Part shown: in pieces, positions 1-10,186 of the stretch
Layout: the number at the start of each line of letters is the position of its first letter
Position numbering within the stretch: the first letter of the stretch is position 1
Source: a virus
Lineage: Duplodnaviria > Heunggongvirae > Uroviricota > Caudoviricetes
DNA length: 10,186 nucleotides
IMG/VR virus record: IMGVR_UViG_2695420380_000017
Reading direction: 5' to 3' (one strand)
Program-made: the position numbers and the translations under genes
The notes under the pieces: model-generated
What the model was told of the DNA's origin: nothing
The model's input: only the letters and a program-made list of their open reading frames with translations
Databases searched by the model: none

Positions 1-141
1 TTACTGCTTACACTGTAAGAACGCCGCAAACTCCGCTCCCCAGAAGCTCATCCGTATTTCACACAGCGAACCGTGCAACATCCAGATGATGAGGATTGCC
101 GTCACGCAGAACGTGATGGTCGTAAGCGATTTTTGCGACAT
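1..141 (-). CDS. hok: Hok/Gef-family type I toxin, small membrane peptide (46 aa: MSQKSLTTITFCVTAILIIWMLHGSLCEIRMSFWGAEFAAFLQCKQ)
   Basis: Hand translation of minus strand from ATG (complement of 139-141) to TAA (complement of 1-3); not in the ORF track because it is short. N-terminal hydrophobic helix followed by SLCEIR ... EFAAF, matching the Hok/Gef signature (R1 Hok: ...[25 protein letters not shown], from memory). AAGGAG RBS about 8 nt upstream of the ATG. Confidence 0.7.
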   Translation of the reverse strand: MSQKSLTTITFCVTAILIIWMLHGSLCEIRMSFWGAEFAAFLQCKQ

Positions 142-331: not shown

Positions 332-592
332 TTAATTCTGAGGTAAAGGCAAGCTCATCTGATTGTTTCCCCTGTGTGAAGCTGGCAGATCATGCCACGG
401 GATATCTTCTGAAGAGTGAACGCCGGAGGCGTGTTTTGATGTGAATTTATGGAAAGCTTCCAGTGTTGAGAAGCATACGCCGCATTCCAGATTGTTACAC
501 TGGTAATACTTTTGCCGCACGGTGTTTGAATCATTTTCCGGACGACTGGTGCGGATACGGGCAGATGCGCCACAAAGCGGACAACGGAACAT
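332..592 (-). CDS. ogr: Ogr/Delta-family zinc-finger late transcription activator
   Basis: N-terminus MFRCPLCGASARIRTSR...YYQCNNLECGVCF matches P2 Ogr (MFHCPLC...RTSR...YHQCQNVNC...) with the four-Cys pattern. Strong RBS AAGGGAGG just upstream; lies downstream of gene D as in P2. Confidence 0.85.
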   Translation of the reverse strand: MFRCPLCGASARIRTSRPENDSNTVRQKYYQCNNLECGVCFSTLEAFHKFTSKHASGVHSSEDIPWHDLPASHRGNNQMSLPLPQN

Positions 593-603
593 AGCGACCT
601 CCC

Positions 604-2364
604 TTAACGTAGTGCAGGGGCTATTCTAAGTTGTTCTGGCTCATACTCCAACAGCCAGTCCGTTTCGAGCGAAAAGCGGTGATTTAACTCTTGAAGAAAT
701 AGGCTTTGATACGATTTATCCAAAGCCTGTAAAAGATTGGAATGTTTTTTNNNNNNNNNNNNNNNNNNNNNNNNNNNNNNNNNNNNNNNNNNNNNNNNNN
801 NNNNNNNNNNNNNNNNNNNNNNNNNNNNNNNNNNNNNNNNNNNNNNNNNNNNNNNNNNNNNNNNNNNNNNNNNNNNNNNNNNNNNNNNNNNNNNNNNNNN
901 NNNNNNNNNNNNNNNNNNNNNNNNNNNNNNNNNNNNNNNNNNNNNNNNNNNNNNNNNNNNNNNNNNNNNNNNNNNNNNNNNNNNNNNNNNNNNNNNNNNN
1001 NNNNNNNNNNNNNNNNNNNNNNNNNNNNNNNNNNNNNNNNNNNNNNNNNNNNNNNNNNNNNNNNTGGCTGTATATACGAACAACGGGAATATTTCTTCTT
1101 TGACTTGATGACGCCACTCTTCGCATTCCAGCGATACAACTTGAACTGGCTCATTTCTCTTTTCTTTATAATAAAAATCGTTTTTATCCCTTTCTGTTGG
1201 AGTAAGAGATAACAAAGGACCAATTTCTTTTGAAATTATACTGGATAGCGGTGTTTCCAAAGCTCCCCCAGCGTAAGGCATTCTTTCTGTTACGCCACAT
1301 ACACTACGCCATTTTCCTTTGGGGGCGGTAGGGGCTGAAGGTAGGTCAATCCTTTTGCTTTCAGTCAGCTCTTCCATTATCTCCCAATTAAATCCACACA
1401 GACGAAAATCTCCTTTTGCTGTAAATGTTACCACAGCACGTTCAGCGATAGTATAACCTGTGTTTTGTAATAAAAACGACAGCGGGTAATTTATTGCCTT
1501 CGGATTAATATGAGTATGACAGTTTTTCAGTATTTCTTCACACTGCTTTTTCCAAAGTGGATAATGTTTTTCTTTATAAAGAGAAATATCATCTGCTGAT
1601 ACAGGGAAATACTCCTGTTGACTAAATGACTTGATGATTTTTTCTAGTGATTGTGGGGTAGTTTGTTCATTGTCAAAGTTTGTAACCAATGGGAATGCAT
1701 CCGTTAGTTGACAAAGCAAATTATCAACTTCATATTCAGATAAAGCTGTATAATAAGGAAGTACAATATTTAATTGCTCGTCATCGGCTACTTTAATGCT
1801 GAAATCGGGCATAGACTGAGTGAATTGCTTCAGCTTAGCTTCCAGCAATTTAATTTGTTTATCCTTTTCATCTGGCTCAGCAGGAAGCAACCATGAAGAA
1901 GGCACTTTATAGCAGATTATATTATGTTTTATTGCTGAAAAACGTGGACCGCTATCATTGGTAATGATTGCCACCTCCGAATCTGGATCGTCAGCGCAAT
2001 ACCCTGCCGCAATACCAACAAAACGATCGTCGGCCTCCTGATAATCCAATTGTTCAGATAACTGTTCACATGGTTTCAGGCTTAGATCCATGGTAAGAAA
2101 AACTCGCGGCGAGCGTTCACGAATAACAAGAGTCATGTCAGTTGAATCAACTACTTGATTAAATAGGCTAGCAGCCTTCCTTGCTTTTTTGGATAGGCGG
2201 GAATTACCTTGCCCTTTCTGGCGGTCAATCTCTTGCTGAATGGGCCTTGTAATAATGATACATACTTCATCACAAGCAGTAATCTCGGAAAAATTTACCT
2301 GCGTCAAGTCCTTGCATTGTAGAAAAATGTTTGAGTCTGGGAATAAATACAGCTTTTTGTTCAT
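604..2364 (-). CDS. AT-rich cargo ORF, 586 codons, PIN-like predicted nuclease N-terminus and uncharacterised C-terminal ~430 aa (interrupted by N run 751-1064)
   Basis: Long ORF with GAGG RBS 5 nt before the ATG (complement of 2362-2364). Visibly AT-rich against the GC-rich flanking phage genes. N-terminal ~150 aa carries a PIN-like acidic pattern: LYLFPDSNIFL, QQEIDRQ, ADDPD, AIITNDSGPRF. Sits between D and ogr, which are adjacent in P2. Confidence 0.75.
   Translation of the reverse strand: MNKKLYLFPDSNIFLQCKDLTQVNFSEITACDEVCIIITRPIQQEIDRQKGQGNSRLSKKARKAASLFNQVVDSTDMTLVIRERSPRVFLTMDLSLKPCEQLSEQLDYQEADDRFVGIAAGYCADDPDSEVAIITNDSGPRFSAIKHNIICYKVPSSWLLPAEPDEKDKQIKLLEAKLKQFTQSMPDFSIKVADDEQLNIVLPYYTALSEYEVDNLLCQLTDAFPLVTNFDNEQTTPQSLEKIIKSFSQQEYFPVSADDISLYKEKHYPLWKKQCEEILKNCHTHINPKAINYPLSFLLQNTGYTIAERAVVTFTAKGDFRLCGFNWEIMEELTESKRIDLPSAPTAPKGKWRSVCGVTERMPYAGGALETPLSSIISKEIGPLLSLTPTERDKNDFYYKEKRNEPVQVVSLECEEWRHQVKEEIFPLFVYTAXXXXXXXXXXXXXXXXXXXXXXXXXXXXXXXXXXXXXXXXXXXXXXXXXXXXXXXXXXXXXXXXXXXXXXXXXXXXXXXXXXXXXXXXXXXXXXXXXXXXXXXXXKKHSNLLQALDKSYQSLFLQELNHRFSLETDWLLEYEPEQLRIAPALR
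751..1064. other. Run of 314 N inside the cargo ORF
   Basis: Directly visible; about 105 codons of the cargo protein are unreadable. Confidence 1.
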
Positions 2365-2399
2365 TCAAACCTCAACTATGTCAATGGTGTTAGATTAAT

Positions 2400-2427
2400 A
2401 TAATAATAGTTATCAATTGGTTATCAA
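2400..2427 (-). promoter_or_regulatory. Candidate sigma70 promoter for the cargo ORF (minus strand -35 TTGATA, 16-nt spacer, -10 TATTAT)
   Basis: Read on the minus strand: TTGATA (plus 2422-2427) and TATTAT (plus 2400-2405), in the AT-rich 225-bp gap between D and the cargo ORF. Sequence match only. Confidence 0.25.
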
Positions 2428-2589
2428 AGCATGATTCTTACCACCCCTGATGTCAGGTAGGAAAACACCATATGTTTCTGCTCTGTTTTTCCTTAGAAAT
2501 AGGCATCCTTGCTGGAACAAAGCGAGCAGCTATATTGACTCTATGTTGTGAGTGTGTTGATCCGTTCTGAGTTAATACATTTAAGTTGC

Positions 2590-3699
2590 TCACTCTGTTT
2601 CTGCTATCCATTCCGGGATTTTTGCCTCAAGCTCAAGCTGCGTGGTAAAGCCGCTGTTATCAATGGTGTGCTCGGCTTTTGCAATAATCCAGTCCTGATT
2701 ATCAATCTCGCTTTTAAATCCTGTTACCGTGCCATGCATTTCGGGGTAGAGTTCTGCACGTCCATGCGCCAGTGTGATGGAGAATGATGCGGCTCCGCGT
2801 TGTAGCTGCTGCCACTTTGCCGCCGCTGCACGTCTTGCTGCCTGCTCGTTCTGATAAGTTTTGCGTAACACAAACACGTTGCCTTCCGCACCTTCCATAT
2901 AGTCGCCTTCCCGGCTGCTGCTTTTCTCCTTTTTTGGTTTTGACGGTTTGCGGCGTTTCACGCTGACTTTTTTCTTTTTCCCGTAATTAAGATCAAGCCA
3001 GTAAGCGCGTACCCCCGTATACGCTTCGCGGTCAGCAATGCGGAACTGATGGCGATCGCCGCTGCTGCGTGTGATGGCGAACGAGGGCAACGGCTGGCCC
3101 TGTGCGTTCACGCCACCACCGGGCATGATGAATAACAGATTACCGCTTTTTACCGTGGTGATTGCGCCCAGCATTTCCGCCATGCGCGTAAGGAAGGACA
3201 TGTCGCTTTCTTCGGTCTGGTCGGCGTGGTCGATTTCGATATCCATCAGCATTTCGCTGATTTGCGGTTTCAGACCATACCGATGAGCGATGGCGGATAC
3301 CACACGCTCAACGGTCACATCATGCCAGGACACCTCACGTTTAACGTTAAATTCAGCCCGAAAATCTGCGCTTCTGGCTGAAACAGTCAGCCTGTCCGGC
3401 GGTCCTTCGTGAGCGATTTCATCAACAATGTAAGTGCCTTTTTCTGTCAGCGGTTCTCCCTTCCAGCCAATGAGAACCGTCAGGCGCGCGCCCCGTGGCG
3501 GTAGCTGCAACTGACCATCCGCATCATCCAGCGTGATGGTGAGCTGGTCCGCCTCAAATCCCCGGTTGTCGGTCAGTGACAGGCTCATCAGGCGCTCTGC
3601 CACGCCTGACAGCGTTTTACCCTCCGCGAGAATATCAAAATCCGGCATTTTCACGGGGTCTGTGCCCTGACTGAGCAATTGCATGGTGGTGTCGGTCAT
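2590..3699 (-). CDS. D: P2 gpD-family tail protein (late control gene D)
   Basis: Motifs SLSLTDNRGFEAD, GWKGEPL, ITRSSGDRHQFRIADREAYTGV, a lysine-rich linker, EFSITLA and GFK..ID.QDW...SGFTT.LELE match gpD as recalled. Start placed at the ATG (MTDTTMQ...) preceded by a GGGAGGGAG RBS rather than the upstream in-frame Met at 3831. Confidence 0.9.
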   Translation of the reverse strand: MTDTTMQLLSQGTDPVKMPDFDILAEGKTLSGVAERLMSLSLTDNRGFEADQLTITLDDADGQLQLPPRGARLTVLIGWKGEPLTEKGTYIVDEIAHEGPPDRLTVSARSADFRAEFNVKREVSWHDVTVERVVSAIAHRYGLKPQISEMLMDIEIDHADQTEESDMSFLTRMAEMLGAITTVKSGNLLFIMPGGGVNAQGQPLPSFAITRSSGDRHQFRIADREAYTGVRAYWLDLNYGKKKKVSVKRRKPSKPKKEKSSSREGDYMEGAEGNVFVLRKTYQNEQAARRAAAAKWQQLQRGAASFSITLAHGRAELYPEMHGTVTGFKSEIDNQDWIIAKAEHTIDNSGFTTQLELEAKIPEWIAETE

Positions 3700-3856
3700 C
3701 TGCTCCCTCCCTGTGTGGCATGGTCGCATGTGCGTGCGGAGGGGGTTACTGCTTTTTGTTGTCGCCGTGGCGGGAGAATGGCGCAGGGGTGAGATTACGC
3801 GCGTGGTGGGTGATGATTGTTGCCGAATCATTTAACGGATACAAGGGGTTGAAGCT

Positions 3857-5041
3857 ATGAGTGAAACTCGTTTTCATGGTGCCCGTGTTACGGAAAATAC
3901 CGACCTGGTAACAGCGATTAACGATGTTGATTCCAGCGTTATCGGTATCGTGGCAACGGCGGATGATGCGGACGCGGAGCTGTTCCCGCTGAACAAGCCC
4001 ACACTGCTGCCCCGCGTCAATGACGTGCTGGGAAAATGCGGAACAACGGGGACGCTTTATCGTGCGCTTAAGGCCATCGCAGACCAGGTGAGCACAAAGG
4101 TGATCGTCGTTCGCGTGGCTGAACACAAAGAAGAAGACGGAAAAACGCAGGATCAACTGGTTATCGGTGGTTCTGAATCTGACGGCAGCTATACGGGGAT
4201 GTATGCGCTGCTTGTTGCAGAGCAGGATGAAAGCATCGGATACCGTCCGCGTATTCTGGCCGCGCCGGAGCTGGACACGGAGGCGGTGACAAAATCCCTG
4301 TGCGTGATTGCGGGTAAACTGCGCGCGTTTGTGTATGCCTCATGTCATGACTGTAACACGATGGCTGAGGCAATTACCTACCGCCAGAAATTCAACGAAC
4401 GTGAGGTGATGCTCTTATGGCCGGACTTCATCGCCTACAACCCGAAAAGTGGCAAAAACGAAACGTTCCCCGCGCCTGCCTATGCGTGCGGCCTTCGTGC
4501 GTACATTGACCATGAGCAGGGCTGGCACAAATCGCTGTCCAACGTTCCGGTTAAAAATGTGCTGGGGATGTCCAGGCATGTGTTCTGGTCGTTGCAGGCC
4601 GAAGACAGTGATGCCAACAGCCTCAACAACAAAGAAATCACGACCATTATTCGTCGCAACGGGTTCCGCTTCTGGGGCAACCGCACACCGGAAACGAACG
4701 CCTACATCTTTGAGGTGTATACCCGAACCGCACAGGTGCTGGCTGATTCAATTGCGGAAGCGCAGTTTGAAACCATCGACAGTCCACTGACGCCTGCGAA
4801 CGTGAAGGATGTTATCGGTGCCATCAGGGCAAAACTGGATTCACTGGTTACTGCCGGGAAACTGATTGGGGCGTCGTGCTGGTATGACGTGGTGGATAAC
4901 GGCACCACGAATTTACGTCAGGGGCGCGTGCGTATTCGCTACAAATATACGCCTGTTCCCCCGCTGGAAGACATGGAGCTTTACCAGTCGTTTACTGATG
5001 AATTCTTTGGTCCCGCATTTGCGGTGCTGGGAGGTGCCTGA
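3857..5041 (+). CDS. FI: Contractile tail sheath protein (P2 gpFI family)
   Basis: 394 aa; motifs FPLNKP, AIADQ, KLRAF, WPDF, EQGWHK.LSNV, IRR.GFRFWGNRT, YTPVPPLE match P2 FI as recalled. Stop overlaps the FII start (ATGA). Confidence 0.93.
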   Translation: MSETRFHGARVTENTDLVTAINDVDSSVIGIVATADDADAELFPLNKPTLLPRVNDVLGKCGTTGTLYRALKAIADQVSTKVIVVRVAEHKEEDGKTQDQLVIGGSESDGSYTGMYALLVAEQDESIGYRPRILAAPELDTEAVTKSLCVIAGKLRAFVYASCHDCNTMAEAITYRQKFNEREVMLLWPDFIAYNPKSGKNETFPAPAYACGLRAYIDHEQGWHKSLSNVPVKNVLGMSRHVFWSLQAEDSDANSLNNKEITTIIRRNGFRFWGNRTPETNAYIFEVYTRTAQVLADSIAEAQFETIDSPLTPANVKDVIGAIRAKLDSLVTAGKLIGASCWYDVVDNGTTNLRQGRVRIRYKYTPVPPLEDMELYQSFTDEFFGPAFAVLGGA

Positions 5042-5553
5042 TGGCTGTACCAAAACATCTTCGCTTTTTTACGCTGTTTGTGGATGGTGAAAACGAAGTG
5101 GGTAAGGTGACGTCCGTCACTCTGCCTAAGCTGACGCGCAAAACCGACAGCTACCGGGGTGGTGGCATGATGGGAGCGGTAAGTATTGATCTCGGCCTGG
5201 ATGACTCCGCGCTTGATGCGAGCTTTGTCATGGGGGGCGCAGTTCGTGAGCTGTTCCTTAAGTATGGCGGCACGATTGACGGTACGCTGCTGCGTTTTGC
5301 GGGTGAATACTACACCGACGCTGAAAGCGACCTGTATGAAGTCGAAATGCGCGGACGTGTGACGGAAATTGATATGGGGGAAGCCAAACAGGGCGAAGCC
5401 ACATCACACACTTACGCCATTAAAAACACCTACTACAAGCTGAGTGTTAACGATCGCCCGTTGTGGGAGATTGACCTGCTGAACTTCATTTACCGGAAGG
5501 ACGGCAGGGACATTGTGCCCGATCGCATCCGTTCCGCGCTCGGGCTTGGCTGA
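5041..5553 (+). CDS. FII: Tail tube protein (P2 gpFII family)
   Basis: 170 aa; TLPKLTRK..YRGGGM...DLGLDD...RFAG.Y and EVEMRGR..EID.GE.KQGE resemble P2 FII as recalled. GGAGG RBS; translationally coupled to FI. Confidence 0.92.
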   Translation: MAVPKHLRFFTLFVDGENEVGKVTSVTLPKLTRKTDSYRGGGMMGAVSIDLGLDDSALDASFVMGGAVRELFLKYGGTIDGTLLRFAGEYYTDAESDLYEVEMRGRVTEIDMGEAKQGEATSHTYAIKNTYYKLSVNDRPLWEIDLLNFIYRKDGRDIVPDRIRSALGLG

Positions 5554-5607
5554 TAAGTAATATGCAGGCGGCGCAGTGCGTCGCCTCTGACTGAAAGGAG
5601 TTTCCTG

Positions 5608-5973
5608 ATGAAAGAGACGAAAAACATCGATACCGAAAACACGGTCGTTGCTGACACTGTGAAAGAAACCAGTGAGCGTGGCGTAAAACTTACCCAACCA
5701 ATTGAGCGAGGCGGCGAAAAAATCACGTATGTGGAGATCACCGGGGCTATTGAGCAGGCTGGATCTCTGCGAGATTTGTCGCTGTCTGATGTGCTGAATT
5801 TGAAAGCGGAATCCATGTTTACGCTGCTGTCACGCGTGACATCACCGCGACTGGATGAAGTGACGATCAAAAAAATGGCATCCCGTGACTTTATTCAGTT
5901 ATGTGTGGTTGCCGTAAATTTTTTGAGCGGTGCGGACTCTGGCGAGAAGAACGAACAGGCGACGGAAGCCTGA
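5608..5973 (+). CDS. E: Tail assembly chaperone E (zero-frame product)
   Basis: 121-aa acidic ORF with AAAGGAG RBS, positioned between the tube and tape-measure genes as in P2; contains the slippery heptamer near its 3' end. Confidence 0.85.
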   Translation: MKETKNIDTENTVVADTVKETSERGVKLTQPIERGGEKITYVEITGAIEQAGSLRDLSLSDVLNLKAESMFTLLSRVTSPRLDEVTIKKMASRDFIQLCVVAVNFLSGADSGEKNEQATEA

Positions 5974-6137
5974 TCACGGTTGTGTGCTTTGAGCACATAG
6001 AAGACTTTGTGGCGGATATTGCCGCCATTTTTAACTGGTCGCCCGCCGAAATCTTCATGATGACGCCCGGCGAAGTGGTTAGCTGGCGTGAGCGGGCGGC
6101 ACTTCGCAGCGGGAATGCAGACAATGAAGACTCTTGA
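5608..6137 (+). CDS. E': Tail assembly chaperone E+E' (programmed -1 ribosomal frameshift fusion)
   Basis: Zero-frame codons AAT TTT TTG (5917-5925) contain T_TTT_TTG. The -1 frame is open from there to TGA at 6135-6137 (track ORF 5901..6137), giving ...VAVNFL then ERCGLWREERTG... . Same mechanism and position as P2 E/E'. Confidence 0.7.
5919..5925 (+). promoter_or_regulatory. Slippery heptamer T_TTT_TTG for the -1 frameshift
   Basis: Six T then G, in frame as X_XXY_YYZ relative to E; the -1 frame continues open for about 70 codons. Confidence 0.7.
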
Positions 6138-9062
6138 TATCCGGGTCGCTTTCAGCGCCGTTGACAGGCTGACCCGGCCTGCCGAAAACGCCCGCCGCCT
6201 GATGGGGCAGTTTGGTGACTCCATCCAGCGAACGCAGGGGGCGATCAAAAATCTCGAGCGTCAGGCGCGTTCATTTGAGCGCGCCCGTGACGCTGTCAGT
6301 AAAGCGGATGCGGGCATCGTGAAAGCACGACGCCAGCTTAACGCCCTTAATCAGTTACAACGCACGGGTACAGTGCTCAGCGAAAAACAACAAAAGCTGA
6401 TGCAGCAGTTAAGCACCCGGCTTGAACGCCTGAATGAATCGCGCACACGGGAAATTCAGAAAATGCGGGAACTTGGCGGAGAGCTGAAACGCCACGGCAT
6501 TTCCCTGACAGGCAGCGATAACACCATCCAGCAGGCCATCAGACGCACCGGACAATACAACAACCAGCTTGAACGCGAACGGCGGGCGCTTGCGCGTGTA
6601 ACGCAGGCGCGTGAGCGGTATTCACGCGCGCAGGAAACAGCGGGAAAACTGAAAACAGGTGGTGCGCTGGCAACAGGTGCGGCGGCAGCGGGCGGCTATG
6701 CTGCCGGGCGTTTTTTGCAGCCCGCTATCGGGTTCGGGAAAGAGATGTCCCGTGTTCAGGCACTGACGCGAATCGATAAAAACAGCCCGCAGTTTAAGGC
6801 GCTGCGTGAGCAGGCGTTAAAACTTGGCTCTGAAACGCAGTTCACCGCAGGCGATGCCGCCAGTGGACAGGCATTTCTTGCAATGGCTGGTTTCACACCG
6901 CAGGCCATTCAGGCTGCGCTTCCCGGCGTGCTGAGCATGGCAACGGCTGGCGGTATGGACCTCGGCGAGACGGCGGATATTGGTTCCAATATCCTGACGC
7001 AGTTCGGCCTCTCTGCTGACCAGATGGACCGGGTCGGTGACACACTTACCGCAGCGTTTACCCGTACCAACACTGACCTTCGCGCACTGGGCGAAACCAT
7101 GAAATATGCAGGTCCGGTGGCGGGTAAGCTGGGAATATCGCTGGAGCAGGCCGCAGCGATGGCGGGCGTGCTGGCGAAGATGGGTATCAGGGGGAGTGAT
7201 GCAGGTACAGCGTTGCGTAAAAGCCTGGCCAATCTGTCATCACCGCCAAAGGCAGCGGCAGAAGCACTGAAAGAGCTGGGGGTGTCAGTTGCTGACGCCA
7301 AAGGCAAAATGCGCCCGATGGAGAATGTGCTGGCCGATCTCTATAAAGCCACCCGCAAATACGGGGAGGTTGACCGGGTATCGTTCTTTAAGGACATTGC
7401 CGGAGAAGAGGCTTTCACATCATTTATGGGCCTCGTTGATGCGGCAGGTGACGGCTTCTTAGCCAAACTGAGAAAAGAACTTGAAGGCGCGCGCGGTGAG
7501 GCAGAACGCACGGCAAAGGTTATGGCCAATAACCTTGATGGCAACCTGAAATCACTCGGCAGTGCATGGGAAGGTCTGCGTATTCGCATCAGTGATCTGG
7601 TTGACGGTCCGCTGCGTTCTGTCACGCAGTGGCTCACGCGGGTTGTCTCAAAGGTGACGGCGCTGGCGCAGGCCCACCCGGCACTGACGCGCCAGTTACT
7701 GATAGCGGGAGGCGCACTGCTGGCGACAACAGCAACGGTTGGTTCGTTGTCTCTGGTTATTGGGGTGCTTCACGGGAAGCTGGCTACGTTGCGTCTCGGT
7801 TTTTCTCTCCTGACCGAATCAATGAATGTTGTCAGGGTTCTGCCTGCATTATGGGGAATGGTGACGGGTTCCGTTTCTTTACTTGGTGGCGCTATCGGGG
7901 CGCTGTTCAGTCCGGTTAGTCTTATCGTGGCTGCGCTTGCCGGAGCTGCCGTTCTTATCTGGAAATACTGGGATCCCATCAGGGCATTTTTTGCCGGGGT
8001 GTTCAGCGGGATTATGGAAAGGCTGACCCCGTTGCGCGAAACCTTTGAACGNNNNNNNNNNNNNNNNNNNNNNNNNNNNNNNNNNNNNNNNNNNNNNNNN
8101 NNNNNNNNNNNNNNNNNNNNNNNNNNNNNNNNNNNNNNNNNNNNNNNNNNNNNNNNNNNNNNNNNNNNNNNNNNNNNNNNNNNNNNNNNNNNNNNNNNNN
8201 NNNNNNNNNNNNNNNNNNNNNNNNNNNNNNNNNNNNNNNNNNNNNNNNNNNNNNNNNNNNNNNNNNNNNNNNNNNNNNNNNNNNNNNNNNNNNNNNNNNN
8301 NNNNNNNNNNNNNNNNNNNNNNNNNNNNNNNNNNNNNNNNNNNNNNNNNNNNNNNNNNNNNNNNNNNNNNNNNNNNNNNNNNNNNNNNNNNNNNNNNNNN
8401 NNNNNNNNNNNNNNNNNNNNNNNNNNNNNNNNNNNNNNNNNNNNNNNNNNNNNNNNNNNNNNNNNNNNNNNNNNNNNNNNNNNNNNNNNNNNNNNNNNNN
8501 NNNNNNNNNNNNNNNNNNNNNNNNNNNNNNNNNNNNNAAACCCAAAGACAACAAACCGCTCACANNNNNNNNNNNNNNNNNNNNNNNNNNNNNNNNNNNN
8601 NNNNNNNNNNNNNNNNNNNNNNNNNNNNNNNNNNNNNNNNNNNNNNNNNNNNNNNNNNNNNNNNNNNNNNNNNNNNNNNNNNNNNNNNNNNNNNNNNNNN
8701 NNNNNNNNNNNNNNNNNNNNNNNNNNNNNNNNNNNNNNNNNNNNNNNNNCAGTAAGCCTGCCCCCGCAATTAATATCACACCCGTGGTCCCGGCTCCGCT
8801 GCCTCCGGCGCTGGTCCCTGTTGTTGCGGCCAGCTCCCGCCCGGTGGCGGAGGCCATACGCTCTCCAGTGGCATCAGTTCCTGTAACTTCCCGTAACCGG
8901 GAGCCTGTTGCCTCCGGATTTGGTGGTGAAATTCATGTTCATCTGCATAACGTTGTTACGCAGAATCCCCGCGAACTGGCGAAACTGGTCGGTGAAATGG
9001 TCAGGGCAGAAATGGAACGGCGCGCCCGTGCCGGGCGTGGCAGTTTTTACGATAAAGATTGA
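6124..9062 (+). CDS. T: Tail tape measure protein (P2 gpT family), interrupted by two N runs; start may be 6115 or GTG 6088
   Basis: Long ORF between E' and U: coiled-coil-like Arg/Glu/Gln-rich N-terminus, Ala/Gly-rich middle, hydrophobic stretch LLIAGGALLATTATVGSLSLVIGVLHG. After the N runs the open frame (8751-9062) ends FYDKD* with TGA at 9060-9062 overlapping the U RBS. Reading frame before and after the N runs differs by one (see findings). Confidence 0.8.
8052..8537. other. Run of 486 N inside the tape measure gene
   Basis: Directly visible. Confidence 1.
8565..8749. other. Run of 185 N inside the tape measure gene, separated from the previous run by a 27-nt readable island (8538-8564)
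   Basis: Directly visible. Confidence 1.
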
Positions 9063-9068
9063 GGAGTC

Positions 9069-9563
9069 ATGGCCATGATGATGATCTACGGCATGTTTGT
9101 TTTTGAGCTGCGTACATTGCCGCATCAGCAGTTACAGCAAAACAAAAGCTGGCGGCATGTGAAAAATGAACGCGTTAACCGTTCGGCAAGCTGGCAGTAT
9201 ATCGGTGCAGGTGATGAGCGCATCGTTCTTTCTGGTGTGCTTTATCCTGAAATTACAGGTGGCGAAGTGTCGCTGTCGCTGCTGACCACGCAGGCGTATA
9301 CAGGACGACCCTGGCCTCTGATTGATGGCGTCGGGCAGATTTACGGCATGTATGTCCTGACCGAAACGAATACGACCCGCTCCGAGTTTGATCGCTACGG
9401 TAAGGCGAAAAAGATAGAATTTTCACTGACTCTTGAACGCTGTGATGAGGATTTGCGGGAGCGCCTGCAATCCTCATCGTTCAGCGATATGCTGTCCGGC
9501 TTCAAAGATAAGGTAACATCATCCCTTAACAGCGCGGCCAGTTCAGTTAAAGGGTTGTTCTGA
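9069..9563 (+). CDS. U: Tail protein U (P2 gpU family); true start may be ATG 9075 for better RBS spacing
   Basis: 164 aa; MMMIYGMFVFELRTLP resembles the P2 gpU N-terminus as recalled. GAGGAG at 9061-9066 and position immediately after T. Confidence 0.87.
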   Translation: MAMMMIYGMFVFELRTLPHQQLQQNKSWRHVKNERVNRSASWQYIGAGDERIVLSGVLYPEITGGEVSLSLLTTQAYTGRPWPLIDGVGQIYGMYVLTETNTTRSEFDRYGKAKKIEFSLTLERCDEDLRERLQSSSFSDMLSGFKDKVTSSLNSAASSVKGLF

Positions 9564-9574
9564 TTTAACACAAA

Positions 9575-9608
9575 AACCGCTAATGGTCAGATTAGCGGTT
9601 ATTTTGTT
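9575..9608. terminator. Bidirectional rho-independent terminator between U and the invertase
   Basis: Perfect 10-bp stem AACCGCTAAT (9575-9584) and ATTAGCGGTT (9591-9600) with 6-nt loop, A-run upstream and ATTTTGTTT downstream. The invertase stop codon lies in the right arm. Confidence 0.6.
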
Positions 9609-10186
9609 TCCTGACTCTTCTCTATTGTTCCGATTGATTCTCCTGCGGGGTGGTAACGATAAATCGTCGATATACCAATGCCGTAAATTATTGCCAGTTG
9701 TTTTCTGTCGTGCCCGTTTTTGATCAGCCTTGCTATTTGCTCATGCTGTTCTTTTGTCAGCTTCGGTCGACGTCCGCCTGTGCGCCCCCGTGCGCGTGCT
9801 GCCGCCAGTCCGGCCAGTGTACGTTCAACAATTAATTCACGTTCCATTTCAGCCAGGGCACCCATCACGTGGAAGAAAAAACGCCCCATTGGAGAAGATG
9901 TATCTATGCTGTCGGTCAGACTGCGAAAATTAATTCCTCGCTCCCGTAGTTCCCCGACGAGAGAAATCAGATGTTTCATGCTTCGCCCGAGGCGATCCAG
10001 TTTCCAGACAACCAGCGTGTCACCTTTTTGAAGGCGCTTTAAAGCGCGTTTTAATCCCGGTCGGTCTGTCTTTGTCCCGCTTAATTTATCTTCAAATATT
10101 TGTTCACATCCTGCACAAACAAGAGCGTTTCGTTGCAGGTCTGTATTCTGGTCATTTGTTGATACCCTTACATAGCCAATCAGCAC
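9599..10186 (-). CDS. Serine DNA invertase, Gin/Pin/Cin/Hin family (N-terminus coincides with the window edge)
   Basis: 195 aa; GYVRVSTNDQ (catalytic Ser), DRPGLKRAL, GDTLVVWKLDRLGRS, MGRFFFHVMGALAEMERELIVERT and C-terminal HTH GIGISTIYRY; almost identical to Gin/Pin as recalled. First codon in the window is GTG at 10184-10186, so the start is either this GTG or lies beyond the edge. Confidence 0.93.
   Translation of the reverse strand: MLIGYVRVSTNDQNTDLQRNALVCAGCEQIFEDKLSGTKTDRPGLKRALKRLQKGDTLVVWKLDRLGRSMKHLISLVGELRERGINFRSLTDSIDTSSPMGRFFFHVMGALAEMERELIVERTLAGLAAARARGRTGGRRPKLTKEQHEQIARLIKNGHDRKQLAIIYGIGISTIYRYHPAGESIGTIEKSQETK

Follow-up and report, generated by a model that had tools for sequence, protein, structure and literature searches.

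Gene order and signals in the window

The window is the whole stretch of DNA that was analysed, 10,186 nucleotides in length. Judged by its sequence, it is the right-hand part of a P88-like, P2-related prophage (genus Xuanwuvirus, family Peduoviridae), and membership was checked on this 10-kb part of the phage genome. P88 matches positions 2400-10186 on one strand at 96.6% DNA identity over 89% of the interval, with collinear gene order, and the remainder is N-masked. Thirteen phage records cover at least 80% of the same interval, also on one strand and at 94-97% identity. The gene identities and strands given by the first-pass annotation agree with the ORF calls and Pfam matches, and the features are listed below.

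1-141, minus: hok/gef-family toxin gene at the prophage end, for context only (Pfam HOK_GEF, E 8e-7; P88 gp52)
332-592, minus: ogr, zinc-finger late-gene activator (Pfam Ogr_Delta, E 5e-14; 99% identical to the P88 homologue)
862-2364 (low end approximate, inside an N run), minus: AT-rich cargo gene for a PIN_4-domain protein, between ogr and D (Pfam PIN_4)
2590-3699, minus: gene D, baseplate hub or late control D (Pfam Phage_GPD; 99% identical to P88 D)
3720-3725, minus: predicted -10 of the D promoter (pD), GACCAT with TG upstream, start predicted near 3713; conserved offset from the Ogr box
3760-3777: single Ogr box TGTCGCCGTGGCGGGAGA, TGT-N12-AGA, centre 3768.5; motif conserved in related loci
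3812-3817, plus: predicted -10 of pF, GATGAT, predicted start near 3824; conserved offset from the Ogr box
3857-5041, plus: FI, tail sheath (Pfam Phage_sheath_1, sheath_1C, Gp18_domIII_N)
5041-5553, plus: FII, tail tube (Pfam Phage_tube, E 2e-46)
5608-5973, plus: E (ORF; weak Phage_TAC_7 match)
to 6137, plus: E', -1 frameshift extension of E (P2-type slippery T TTT TTG at 5919-5925)
about 6124-9062, plus: T, tape measure, partly N-masked at 8052-8537 and 8565-8749 (Pfam PhageMin_Tail, E 7e-58)
9069-9563, plus: U, last gene of a shortened F operon (Pfam Phage_P2_GpU, E 8e-39)
9567-9608, both strands: bidirectional intrinsic terminator hairpin at the point where U and the invertase gene converge (inverted repeat, terminator scan)
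9599-10186, minus: full-length Gin-type serine DNA invertase, 195 aa (Pfam Resolvase, E 1e-50; HTH_7, E 2e-13)

Gene D starts at the ATG at 3699-3697, with the Shine-Dalgarno sequence GGGAGGGAG just upstream, in agreement with the annotated D of P88. A start at 3831 (ORF 2590-3831) was rejected, since it is the Shine-Dalgarno-preceded ATG at 3699 that matches P88 D. The D|FI spacer is therefore 3700-3856 (157 bp), where the first-pass annotation had placed it. E and E' have counterparts at equal offsets in P88 gp47 and gp46. In T, the reading frame before the mask differs from the frame after it, and the masked stretch exceeds its P88 counterpart by 131 nt. The cargo ORF at 604-2364 is artificially long because of an N run; the version in E. 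coli E2855 has 500 aa (~862-2364). For this gene, a separate sigma-70-like promoter match is found at 2427-2400, and window positions 633-2578 are missing from P88.

The hairpin after U has 10 pairs between an A-run and a T-run, gives a terminator score on both strands, and overlaps the stop codon of the invertase gene. Strong hairpins follow U in most loci with the layout of the window, whereas in canonical loci U runs straight into D.

The inverted FI-U block and its distribution

In the P2 record, the genes FI FII E E' T U D ogr lie on a single strand. In the window, ogr, the cargo gene, and D are on the minus strand and FI-FII-E/E'-T-U are on the plus strand, followed by the terminator hairpin and the convergent invertase gene. 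The FI-U block is thus inverted relative to P2, as had been read from the layout alone. The canonical F operon runs co-directionally from FI to D, with D last and driven by pF; here D lies opposite to FI and diverges from it. The genes themselves, the E/E' slippery site, and the architecture of pF are those of the P2/186 F operon, whereas the opposition of FI-U to D and ogr, the position of D, and the terminator after U are not. The proteins are only 42-50% identical to those of P2 (FI 45, FII 42, U 47, and D 50%).

The flipped block is real; it is the usual order in a large and common group of P2-related prophages, P88 and its relatives, and is both ancient and stable. The annotated P88 genome reads D on the minus strand, FI to U on the plus strand, and the invertase on the minus strand, followed by fibre, baseplate, lysis, and head genes, all on the minus strand. 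The layout is found in the isolated phages P88, PhiSM, and SEN5, the first two of which can be induced and form plaques (PMC5285337, PMC6456863). A search of 5426 complete E. coli genomes found the D|FI junction at full length in 1356 of the 1380 genomes containing it, and a synthetic canonical U-to-D junction built from the window sequence was found in none of the 1412 genomes that carry both pieces. Three causes had been left side by side by the first-pass annotation. A lineage-specific layout is borne out, and an assembly artefact and a recent rearrangement are not, the phages, the 1356 E. coli genomes, and 61 related loci being in agreement. It had also stated that a stable, identical layout in close relatives would refute a rearrangement, and P88, PhiSM, SEN5, and the E. 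coli genomes have exactly that layout.

Citrobacter phage PhiSM and other Xuanwuvirus phages share 94-97% DNA identity with the window across D, FI-U, and the invertase, together with gene order, strands, terminator hairpin, and D|FI spacer; P88 differs in lacking the PIN_4 cargo insert (1.95 kb) that separates ogr from D. At a greater distance, the Salmonella phages SEN4 and SEN5 (Senquatrovirus) and the Klebsiella Reginaelenavirus phages also have an inverted FI-U block and a single-box D|FI spacer. In contrast to the window, their D is only 63-70% identical (63% in SEN5, 70% in Klebsiella phage Kp4871-3), their Ogr boxes are perfect TGT-N12-ACA, and next to U no invertase is annotated or detected. 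P2 and Cartapus, with D 50-53% identical, have the canonical layout. Loci were scored from the best 80 genome loci together with those of phages and E. coli: each of the 61 in which D is 58.6% identical or more has the inverted order, and each of the 22 in which it is 54% identical or less has the canonical one. The inverted loci span ~25 enterobacterial genera and one Aeromonas MAG, and neighbour-joining trees without bootstrap show them as monophyletic, whether built from D, which lies outside the block, or from the block genes FI, FII, and U. A search of the literature on members of the clade found no discussion of the layout.

The invertase and the origin of the inversion

The first-pass annotation had linked the inversion in its title to the neighbouring serine invertase, a link that does not survive comparison with relatives. 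The Gin-type invertase is an independent, swappable tail-fibre or host-range module, which neither caused the FI-U inversion nor can reverse it. The protein has the architecture of Gin, Pin, Cin, and Hin (~190 aa, resolvase catalytic domain at the N terminus, HTH at the C terminus). Its DNA is 93.7-98% identical to gin of Mu, D108, and PhiR68_1, the 93.7% identity to Mu gin applying to positions 9807-10186. In P88, one gix site (TTATCTAAAACCTCGGTTTACAGGAA) precedes the invertase start by 55 nt and another (TTCCTGTAAACCGAGGTATTCGATAA) is inside the fibre gene, and the pair flanks a 3-kb fibre segment. Invertases of this family act on an inverted pair of 26-bp gix/hix-type crossover sites, and by comparison with P88 those of the window are expected ~55 nt past position 10186 and ~3 kb further, and the enzyme would flip a segment with a C-terminal tail-fibre part and chaperone beyond the right edge of the window. 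The near-identity to Mu Gin in DNA and the alternative fibre C-termini and chaperones in the gix-bounded segment of P88 resemble the Mu Gin, P1 Cin, and e14 Pin systems. Unlike those systems, the module is embedded in a P2-like genome with its invertase gene convergent with U, and the segment and gix sites fall outside the window.

It is most improbable that this invertase flips, or has lately flipped, the 5.9-kb FI-U block, although a full-length, near-Mu gin gene adjoins it and Gin-type enzymes do invert kilobase segments. Gix- or hix-like sites or inverted repeats at the breakpoints had been proposed for checking; no gix-like site with up to 3 mismatches occurs within the window, and no inverted repeats link 3700-3856 with 9564-9598. 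The gix pair of P88 brackets the tail-fibre segment instead. The block thus has no end sites of a programmed invertible segment, and across the E. coli genomes it has one orientation only, the alternative junction being absent. The invertase is moreover detected in only 7 inverted-layout loci, most inverted relatives being without one. In ~700 E. coli genomes the match ends at window position ~9568, beyond which an acetyltransferase and a fixed fibre stand in place of the invertase while the orientation of FI-U is unchanged, and in Cartapus, whose layout is canonical, a Gin homologue lies upstream of FI. An error of assembly or scaffolding at the junctions is less probable still, to the point of being negligible. 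The window does contain N runs (751-1064, 8052-8537, and 8565-8749), but they lie away from both junctions, as had been noted before, and identical junctions occur in complete virion-derived phage genomes and in more than 1300 complete chromosomes.

A further possibility is modular replacement, in which a pF-FI..U module taken up from another P2-like lineage was placed in reverse between the fibre genes and D. On either side the block is now bordered by a mosaic joint, with invertase or acetyltransferase after U and variable cargo in the D-ogr gap. On the other hand, FI, FII, and U inside the block are about as diverged from P2 as D outside it, the block genes and D recover one identical monophyletic clade, and no closer donor lineage with canonical layout was seen among the sampled loci. 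This route is therefore considered improbable, but a sister phage that once donated its whole F module in reverse would leave a pattern not strictly separable from that of inversion in place. Under the preferred reading, a segment comprising pF and FI-FII-E/E'-T-U would have been inverted in place in a phage ancestral to a large subclade of P2-like phages in enterobacteria, which includes Xuanwuvirus, Reginaelenavirus, Senquatrovirus, and many unnamed prophages. The breakpoints would lie at the U/D boundary and just upstream of the activator site of pF. The F operon now stops at U, where it has gained an intrinsic terminator, and D and FI are arranged head to head with ~125-200 bp between them. 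The arrangement has stayed fixed since then and shows no switching.

Predicted late promoters in the D|FI spacer

The uncoupling of D from the F operon means, as previously argued, that D needs its own promoter, and a strong candidate was found by prediction. The Ogr-site consensus is TGT-N12-ACA (PMC3931495), and the P2 sites of pF, pP, and pO served as the comparison set for the box. The spacers of 59 of 61 related loci each contain one TGT-N12-A[C/G]A at an aligned position with variable N12. The AGA of the window is one mismatch from the consensus half-site, and most relatives have a perfect ACA. Late promoters of the Ogr/Delta class depend on Ogr, which contacts the alpha subunit of RNA polymerase. 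The spacer was compared with their pattern, which combines a TGT-N12-ACA dyad, centred ~55 bp upstream of the start, and a -10 without a good -35. It conforms in both directions, the -10 hexamers beginning 34 nt beyond each end of the box. On the FI side this matches P2 pF, where the box is ~55 bp upstream of the start and the hexamer 34-35 nt beyond it. A gap-free scan anchored on the box in 59 loci (signature A..AT, hexamer offsets 35-40) found the signature toward FI in 57 loci and toward D in 48, with no enrichment at any other offset, although these loci are phylogenetically related and such counts overstate independence. On the D side, 56 of the 59 have A36, and T40 is equally frequent. 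Canonical loci retain only the FI-side -10, and the D-side element is conserved only in the inverted clade.

P2 itself offers a mapped parallel. In its record, pO and pP share a single annotated activator site, and their starts have been mapped to 3016 and 3127, 55.5 bp to either side of the centre of the box at 3063-3080; the -10 offsets of the window reproduce both starts. The P|O spacer of P88 has the same geometry. In the window, the predicted starts of pD and pF would each lie 55.5 bp from the box centre and 111 bp apart. As at pP/pO, a single TGT-N12-NCA-type box is situated midway between divergent units, and the two -10 elements of the window predict the 111-bp spacing of the mapped P2 starts. 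The P2 locus differs in that it serves terminase and scaffold genes rather than tail genes, it has no sequence homology with the window spacer beyond the motif elements, and the starts in the window are predicted.

On this conservation and geometry, it is somewhat probable that a new leftward promoter, pD, drives D through a dyad-symmetric Ogr site that it shares with pF. With slightly less assurance, the balance also favours the view that the ancient inversion created a second bidirectional late promoter of the pP/pO type, in which the site at 3760-3777 drives both the F operon and the D unit. As pD and pF would share the Ogr site, D is proposed to stay under Ogr control and to be co-expressed with the other tail genes. 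Alternatively, D may be expressed at a low constitutive level or from an activator-independent extended -10 promoter, without the Ogr box being shared with pF. A TG one base upstream of the D-side hexamer (offsets 32-33) is present in 38 of the 59 loci, and such a promoter could act without an activator; distant members also have a -35-like hexamer, TTGTCT or TTGTTC, 17 bp upstream. This alternative is considered rather unlikely, because the distance from the D-side -10 to the Ogr box is exact and free of indels across very diverged spacers and mirrors both the pF side and the mapped P2 pP/pO, whereas the stretch from the -10 to the D start codon varies in length. Moreover, D is an essential tail protein, required alongside the other late proteins.

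As a separate observation, an alternating-GC spacer motif is conserved on the D side and is also present at pP. It could be an undescribed element of leftward late promoters of the pP type.

Taken as a whole, the best explanation is an ancestral, fixed FI-U inversion, a candidate D promoter that may share the Ogr site of pF, and an independent invertase, with a probability of about 80%. The result is mainly a clarification, as what looks like a suspicious rearrangement beside a recombinase is a standard ancient gene order. The P88-like group is among the commonest E. coli prophages, being found in about one quarter of complete genomes, and has relatives across Enterobacterales. The rule that the F operon runs from FI to D fails in the inverted clade, which is relevant to annotation pipelines and to users of P2 as a template, and the relative orientation of FI and D is a clean single-event marker that tells the clade apart from phages of the P2/186 type. 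The two mosaic joints that border the block, between D and ogr and downstream of U, are hotspots of cargo and host-range genes and are worth mining. The predicted pD/pF pair with its shared box is a testable case of operon break-up tolerated through reuse of a symmetric activator site; if true, the dyad symmetry of that site would have let the phage survive the splitting of an essential operon.

Gene order in the window and in related phages

Six-frame ORFs and Pfam searches recovered all genes named in the first-pass annotation. They are as follows.

Features of the window
332-592, minus strand: ogr
604-2364, minus strand: ORF of the cargo gene, PIN_4 domain
2590-3831, minus strand: ORF of D, with the actual ATG at 3699
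3857-5041, plus strand: FI
5041-5553, plus strand: FII
5608-5973, plus strand: E
5919-5925: P2-type slippery heptamer T TTT TTG; the E' extension is in the -1 frame
about 6124-9062, plus strand: T, tape measure
9069-9563, plus strand: U
9599-10186, minus strand: serine recombinase, 195 aa
751-1064, 8052-8537 and 8565-8749: N runs, distant from both junctions

The start codon of D at 3699 has GGGAGGGAG directly ahead of it, so the spacer between D and FI is 3700-3856. In the annotated record of P2 itself, the order FI FII E E' T U D ogr lies on one strand with the promoter pF upstream of FI, and the window departs from this order in that its FI-U segment is inverted. The ORFs, the Pfam matches and the P2 record together confirm that FI-U is inverted relative to D and ogr, as the first-pass annotation had claimed. 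Its further statements, that U is followed by a terminator and a convergent invertase and that the N runs do not lie at the junctions, also stand. The terminator separating U from the invertase is a 10-pair hairpin (9567-9608) that has an A-run before it and a T-run after it, and a terminator scan scores it on both strands. The P2-type F operon is not conserved in the window; the shortened operon stops at U, where it has a terminator of its own. In most inverted-layout loci U is followed by strong hairpins, not homologous to each other, whereas in canonical phages U continues straight into D.

Thirteen phage genomes cover at least 80% of 2400-10186 on a single strand at 94-97% identity (megablast, phage records), among them Escherichia phage P88, further Xuanwuvirus members and Citrobacter phage PhiSM. 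The annotated order of P88 is D on the minus strand, FI to U on the plus strand, and then the invertase, the invertible fibre segment, H, G, baseplate, lysis and head genes, all on the minus strand, which makes FI-U the sole late block opposed to the rest. P88 and PhiSM are inducible, plaque-forming phages (PMC5285337, PMC6456863), and the layout is thus functional. The window adds an instance to a phage genus that has been described before, and its gene order can already be seen in annotated public genomes. The searched papers on P88, PhiSM, SEN4/5 and Serratia PP4 make no mention of the FI-U inversion, and those on the kosakonicin and xenorhabdicin tailocins describe other layouts.

Between ogr and D there is a slot for cargo. 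In the window it is filled by an AT-rich insert of 1.95 kb (633-2578), which codes for a PIN_4-domain protein of about 500 aa and has its own sigma-70-like promoter match. The slot is empty in P88 and holds a YecA-family gene in E. coli 631, and the window's insert also occurs in 59 complete E. coli genomes, including O111 strain RM9322. Pfam PIN_4 was the sole match of the cargo protein, with none in PADLOC or NCBIfam, which makes it a candidate uncharacterised defence or toxin gene. The 586-aa length of the cargo ORF is an artefact arising at its 604-1064 end, where it is read through the N run at 751-1064; the E. coli E2855 copy of the gene (99.9% identical) stops at the equivalent of about window position 862. 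The E2855 prophage sits immediately downstream of ihfA. Window 1-141, at the prophage end past ogr, holds a toxin gene of the hok/gef family (Pfam HOK_GEF). No Sok-type antisense RNA was detected, and tRNA and Rfam scans of the whole window gave no match (Rfam at gathering score). The masked stretch of T (8052-8749) is 131 nt longer than its counterpart in P88 and E. coli 631, and the reading frame before the mask differs from that after it; the N-masked stretch may contain an insertion or frameshift in the tape-measure gene of this prophage.

Stability and age of the inversion

A real rearrangement, a lineage-specific layout and an assembly artefact had all been offered as causes. Among 5426 complete E. 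coli genomes, 1380 have any match to the D-FI junction (window 3300-4400), and in 1356 of these it is intact. A synthetic canonical junction, in which the 3' end of the window's U was fused to the 5' end of its D, was present in none of the 1412 complete E. coli genomes that hold both halves. The intact D-FI junction and the absence of the canonical one exclude both an assembly artefact and an orientation polymorphism. A recent rearrangement was not borne out either. The layout is fixed and lineage-specific: close relatives hold the same stable order, an outcome that the first-pass annotation had itself named as a refutation.

The prophage type is a remnant in O157 strains. In E. coli O157 180-PT54 (L002, locus 2325-3735), D is cut by an IS30 insertion and T is frameshifted, while the D-FI spacer and FI-U are kept. 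A P88-like prophage region with D 98% identical to that of the window is also found on a contig (L009, NZ_JBQPOM010000071.1) assigned to the Gram-positive 'Vagococcus sp. WN89Y', most likely through enterobacterial contamination of that assembly.

Salmonella phage SEN5 (Senquatrovirus) and Klebsiella phage Kp4871-3 (Reginaelenavirus), whose D proteins are 63% and 70% identical respectively, also have the inverted block, and P2 (D 50%) and Cartapus (D 53%) have the canonical layout. A genome scan with a D-protein alignment as query, limited to one genome per species, gave 80 loci, which were scored for layout by tblastn together with phage and E. coli loci. Every one of the 61 scored loci whose D was 58.6% identical or more had the inverted layout, and all 22 scored loci with D at 54% or less had the canonical one. 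Hosts of inverted loci include Salmonella, Klebsiella, Enterobacter, Kosakonia, Serratia, Erwinia, Pantoea, Pectobacterium, Brenneria, Xenorhabdus, Photorhabdus, Providencia, Morganella, Yersinia, Hafnia, an Aeromonas MAG and others. With P2 as the root, neighbour-joining trees of D, a gene outside the block, and of FI, FII and U, genes within it, all recover the inverted loci as monophyletic. Divergence from P2 is alike for the two sets, with 42-47% identity in the block genes and 50% in D. The simplest reading of these comparisons is a single in-place inversion in the ancestor of the clade; the alternative origin for the block, that an F module was captured from elsewhere in reverse, is less likely. 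D and U are each least conserved beside the inferred breakpoint, D in its N-terminal 12-18 residues and U in its C-terminal tail.

The invertase and the joint after U

The recombinase has the protein-level characters of the Gin family and is orthologous to Gin; its DNA is 93.7-98% identical to gin of Mu, D108 and PhiR68_1. In P88 (coordinates of locus L001), 65-nt inverted repeats lie at 8889-8953 and 11929-11993 and include gix-type sites. One site, TTATCTAAAACCTCGGTTTACAGGAA, is 55 nt upstream of where the invertase starts; the other, TTCCTGTAAACCGAGGTATTCGATAA, is within the tail-fibre gene. Between the repeats lie 3 kb with chaperones and alternative fibre C-termini, which make up a classic host-range switch of the G-segment type. 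Judged from P88, the equivalent gix sites of the window would fall past position 10186.

Inverted repeats or gix-like sites, which the first-pass annotation had proposed to look for at both breakpoints, were not found there. A search of 2400-10186 returned only chance-level pairs and the terminator hairpin, none of them joining 3700-3856 to 9564-9598. The P88 gix site had 0 matches in the window at up to 3 mismatches, and the gix core AAACCNNGGTTT had 3 at up to 2 mismatches, against 4.8 expected and with none at a junction. Moreover, the inversion stays without the invertase. Only 622 E. coli genomes keep the U-invertase junction intact; in about 700 others similarity ends at window position ~9568 with FI-U still inverted, and a serine O-acetyltransferase and a fixed, non-invertible tail fibre replace the Gin invertase and the invertible fibre segment. 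The region just 3' of U (9564-9610) is a second mosaic joint. An invertase is nearby in only 7 inverted loci, and in the canonical Cartapus it lies upstream of FI. The invertase is thus a swappable module at the joint of the fibre and F blocks, and it adjoins U for no other reason than that the block is inverted. The FI-U inversion is real but ordinary: it is fixed and lineage-specific, and is not an artefact, not recent and not the work of the invertase.

Predicted promoter elements between D and FI

The first-pass annotation held that D, once uncoupled from the F operon, needs its own promoter. We agree, and a candidate leftward promoter, pD, was found in the D-FI spacer. Spacers of about 125-200 bp were taken from the 61 inverted loci, and their alignment has a conserved core. 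Exactly one TGT-N12-A[C/G]A occurs in 59 of the 61, at an aligned position and with variable N12; a TGT-N12-ACA-type box is the Ogr/Delta late-promoter consensus (PMC3931495). The predicted Ogr box of the window is TGTCGCCGTGGCGGGAGA at 3760-3777 (centre 3768.5). It carries AGA, exact TGT-N12-ACA having 0 matches in the window, and was recognised only through comparison with relatives.

When the 59 loci were anchored on the box without gaps, the A..AT of a -10 hexamer stood at offsets 35-40 toward FI in 57 and toward D in 48 (A36 and T40 in 56 of 59), with no enrichment at any other offset. Canonical-layout loci have the same element on the FI side, and their opposite flank is unconserved. The P2 record gives one 'activator binding site; pO, pP promoters' for the divergent late promoters pP and pO. 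Their box TGTGTCAGTGATAAGCCA is at 3063-3080, and the mapped starts, 3016 and 3127, are both 55.5 bp from its centre and 111 bp apart. Hexamers at offsets 35-40 give these mapped starts exactly, and the P-O spacer of P88 has the same geometry. The P2-calibrated rule predicts two promoters in the window.

Promoters predicted in the D-FI spacer
3812-3817, plus strand: -10 GATGAT of pF, start near 3824
3725-3720, minus strand: -10 GACCAT of pD, start near 3713

Each predicted start is 55.5 bp from the box centre at 3768.5, and the two are 111 bp apart. The spacer has the sequence features of an Ogr-dependent promoter, and with its predicted starts it fits the geometry of the shared-site pair pP/pO. 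From the conserved offsets and the P2 calibration, we infer that pD shares its Ogr site with pF. The inversion would have set D head to head with pF, and a leftward promoter would then have evolved on the symmetric site, shared as it is by pP and pO. The main rival is that D is driven by an activator-independent extended -10 promoter; TG is often found ahead of the D-side hexamer.

Nearly all inverted-layout loci have an alternating-GC motif with the consensus CGCGCGCGC[A/G]TG (GTGCGTGCGG at 3727-3740 in the window) immediately upstream of the D-side -10. In P88 (L089, its P-O spacer) and P2 (L088) a similar motif stands ahead of the pP -10, and the pF and pO sides lack it. Derivation of the D-FI spacer by duplication of the P-O spacer was rejected, since the motif orientation differs and similarity is confined to the box and the GC-rich element. 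P88 gp50 and SEN5_27 were likewise rejected as real small ORFs of the spacer; their strands differ between annotations and they overlap the conserved promoter elements.

The recognition of a second bidirectional late promoter of the pP/pO type in this clade may be new. If true, the shared pD/pF promoter would vary a known mechanism only modestly. The layout itself is usable as a clade marker.
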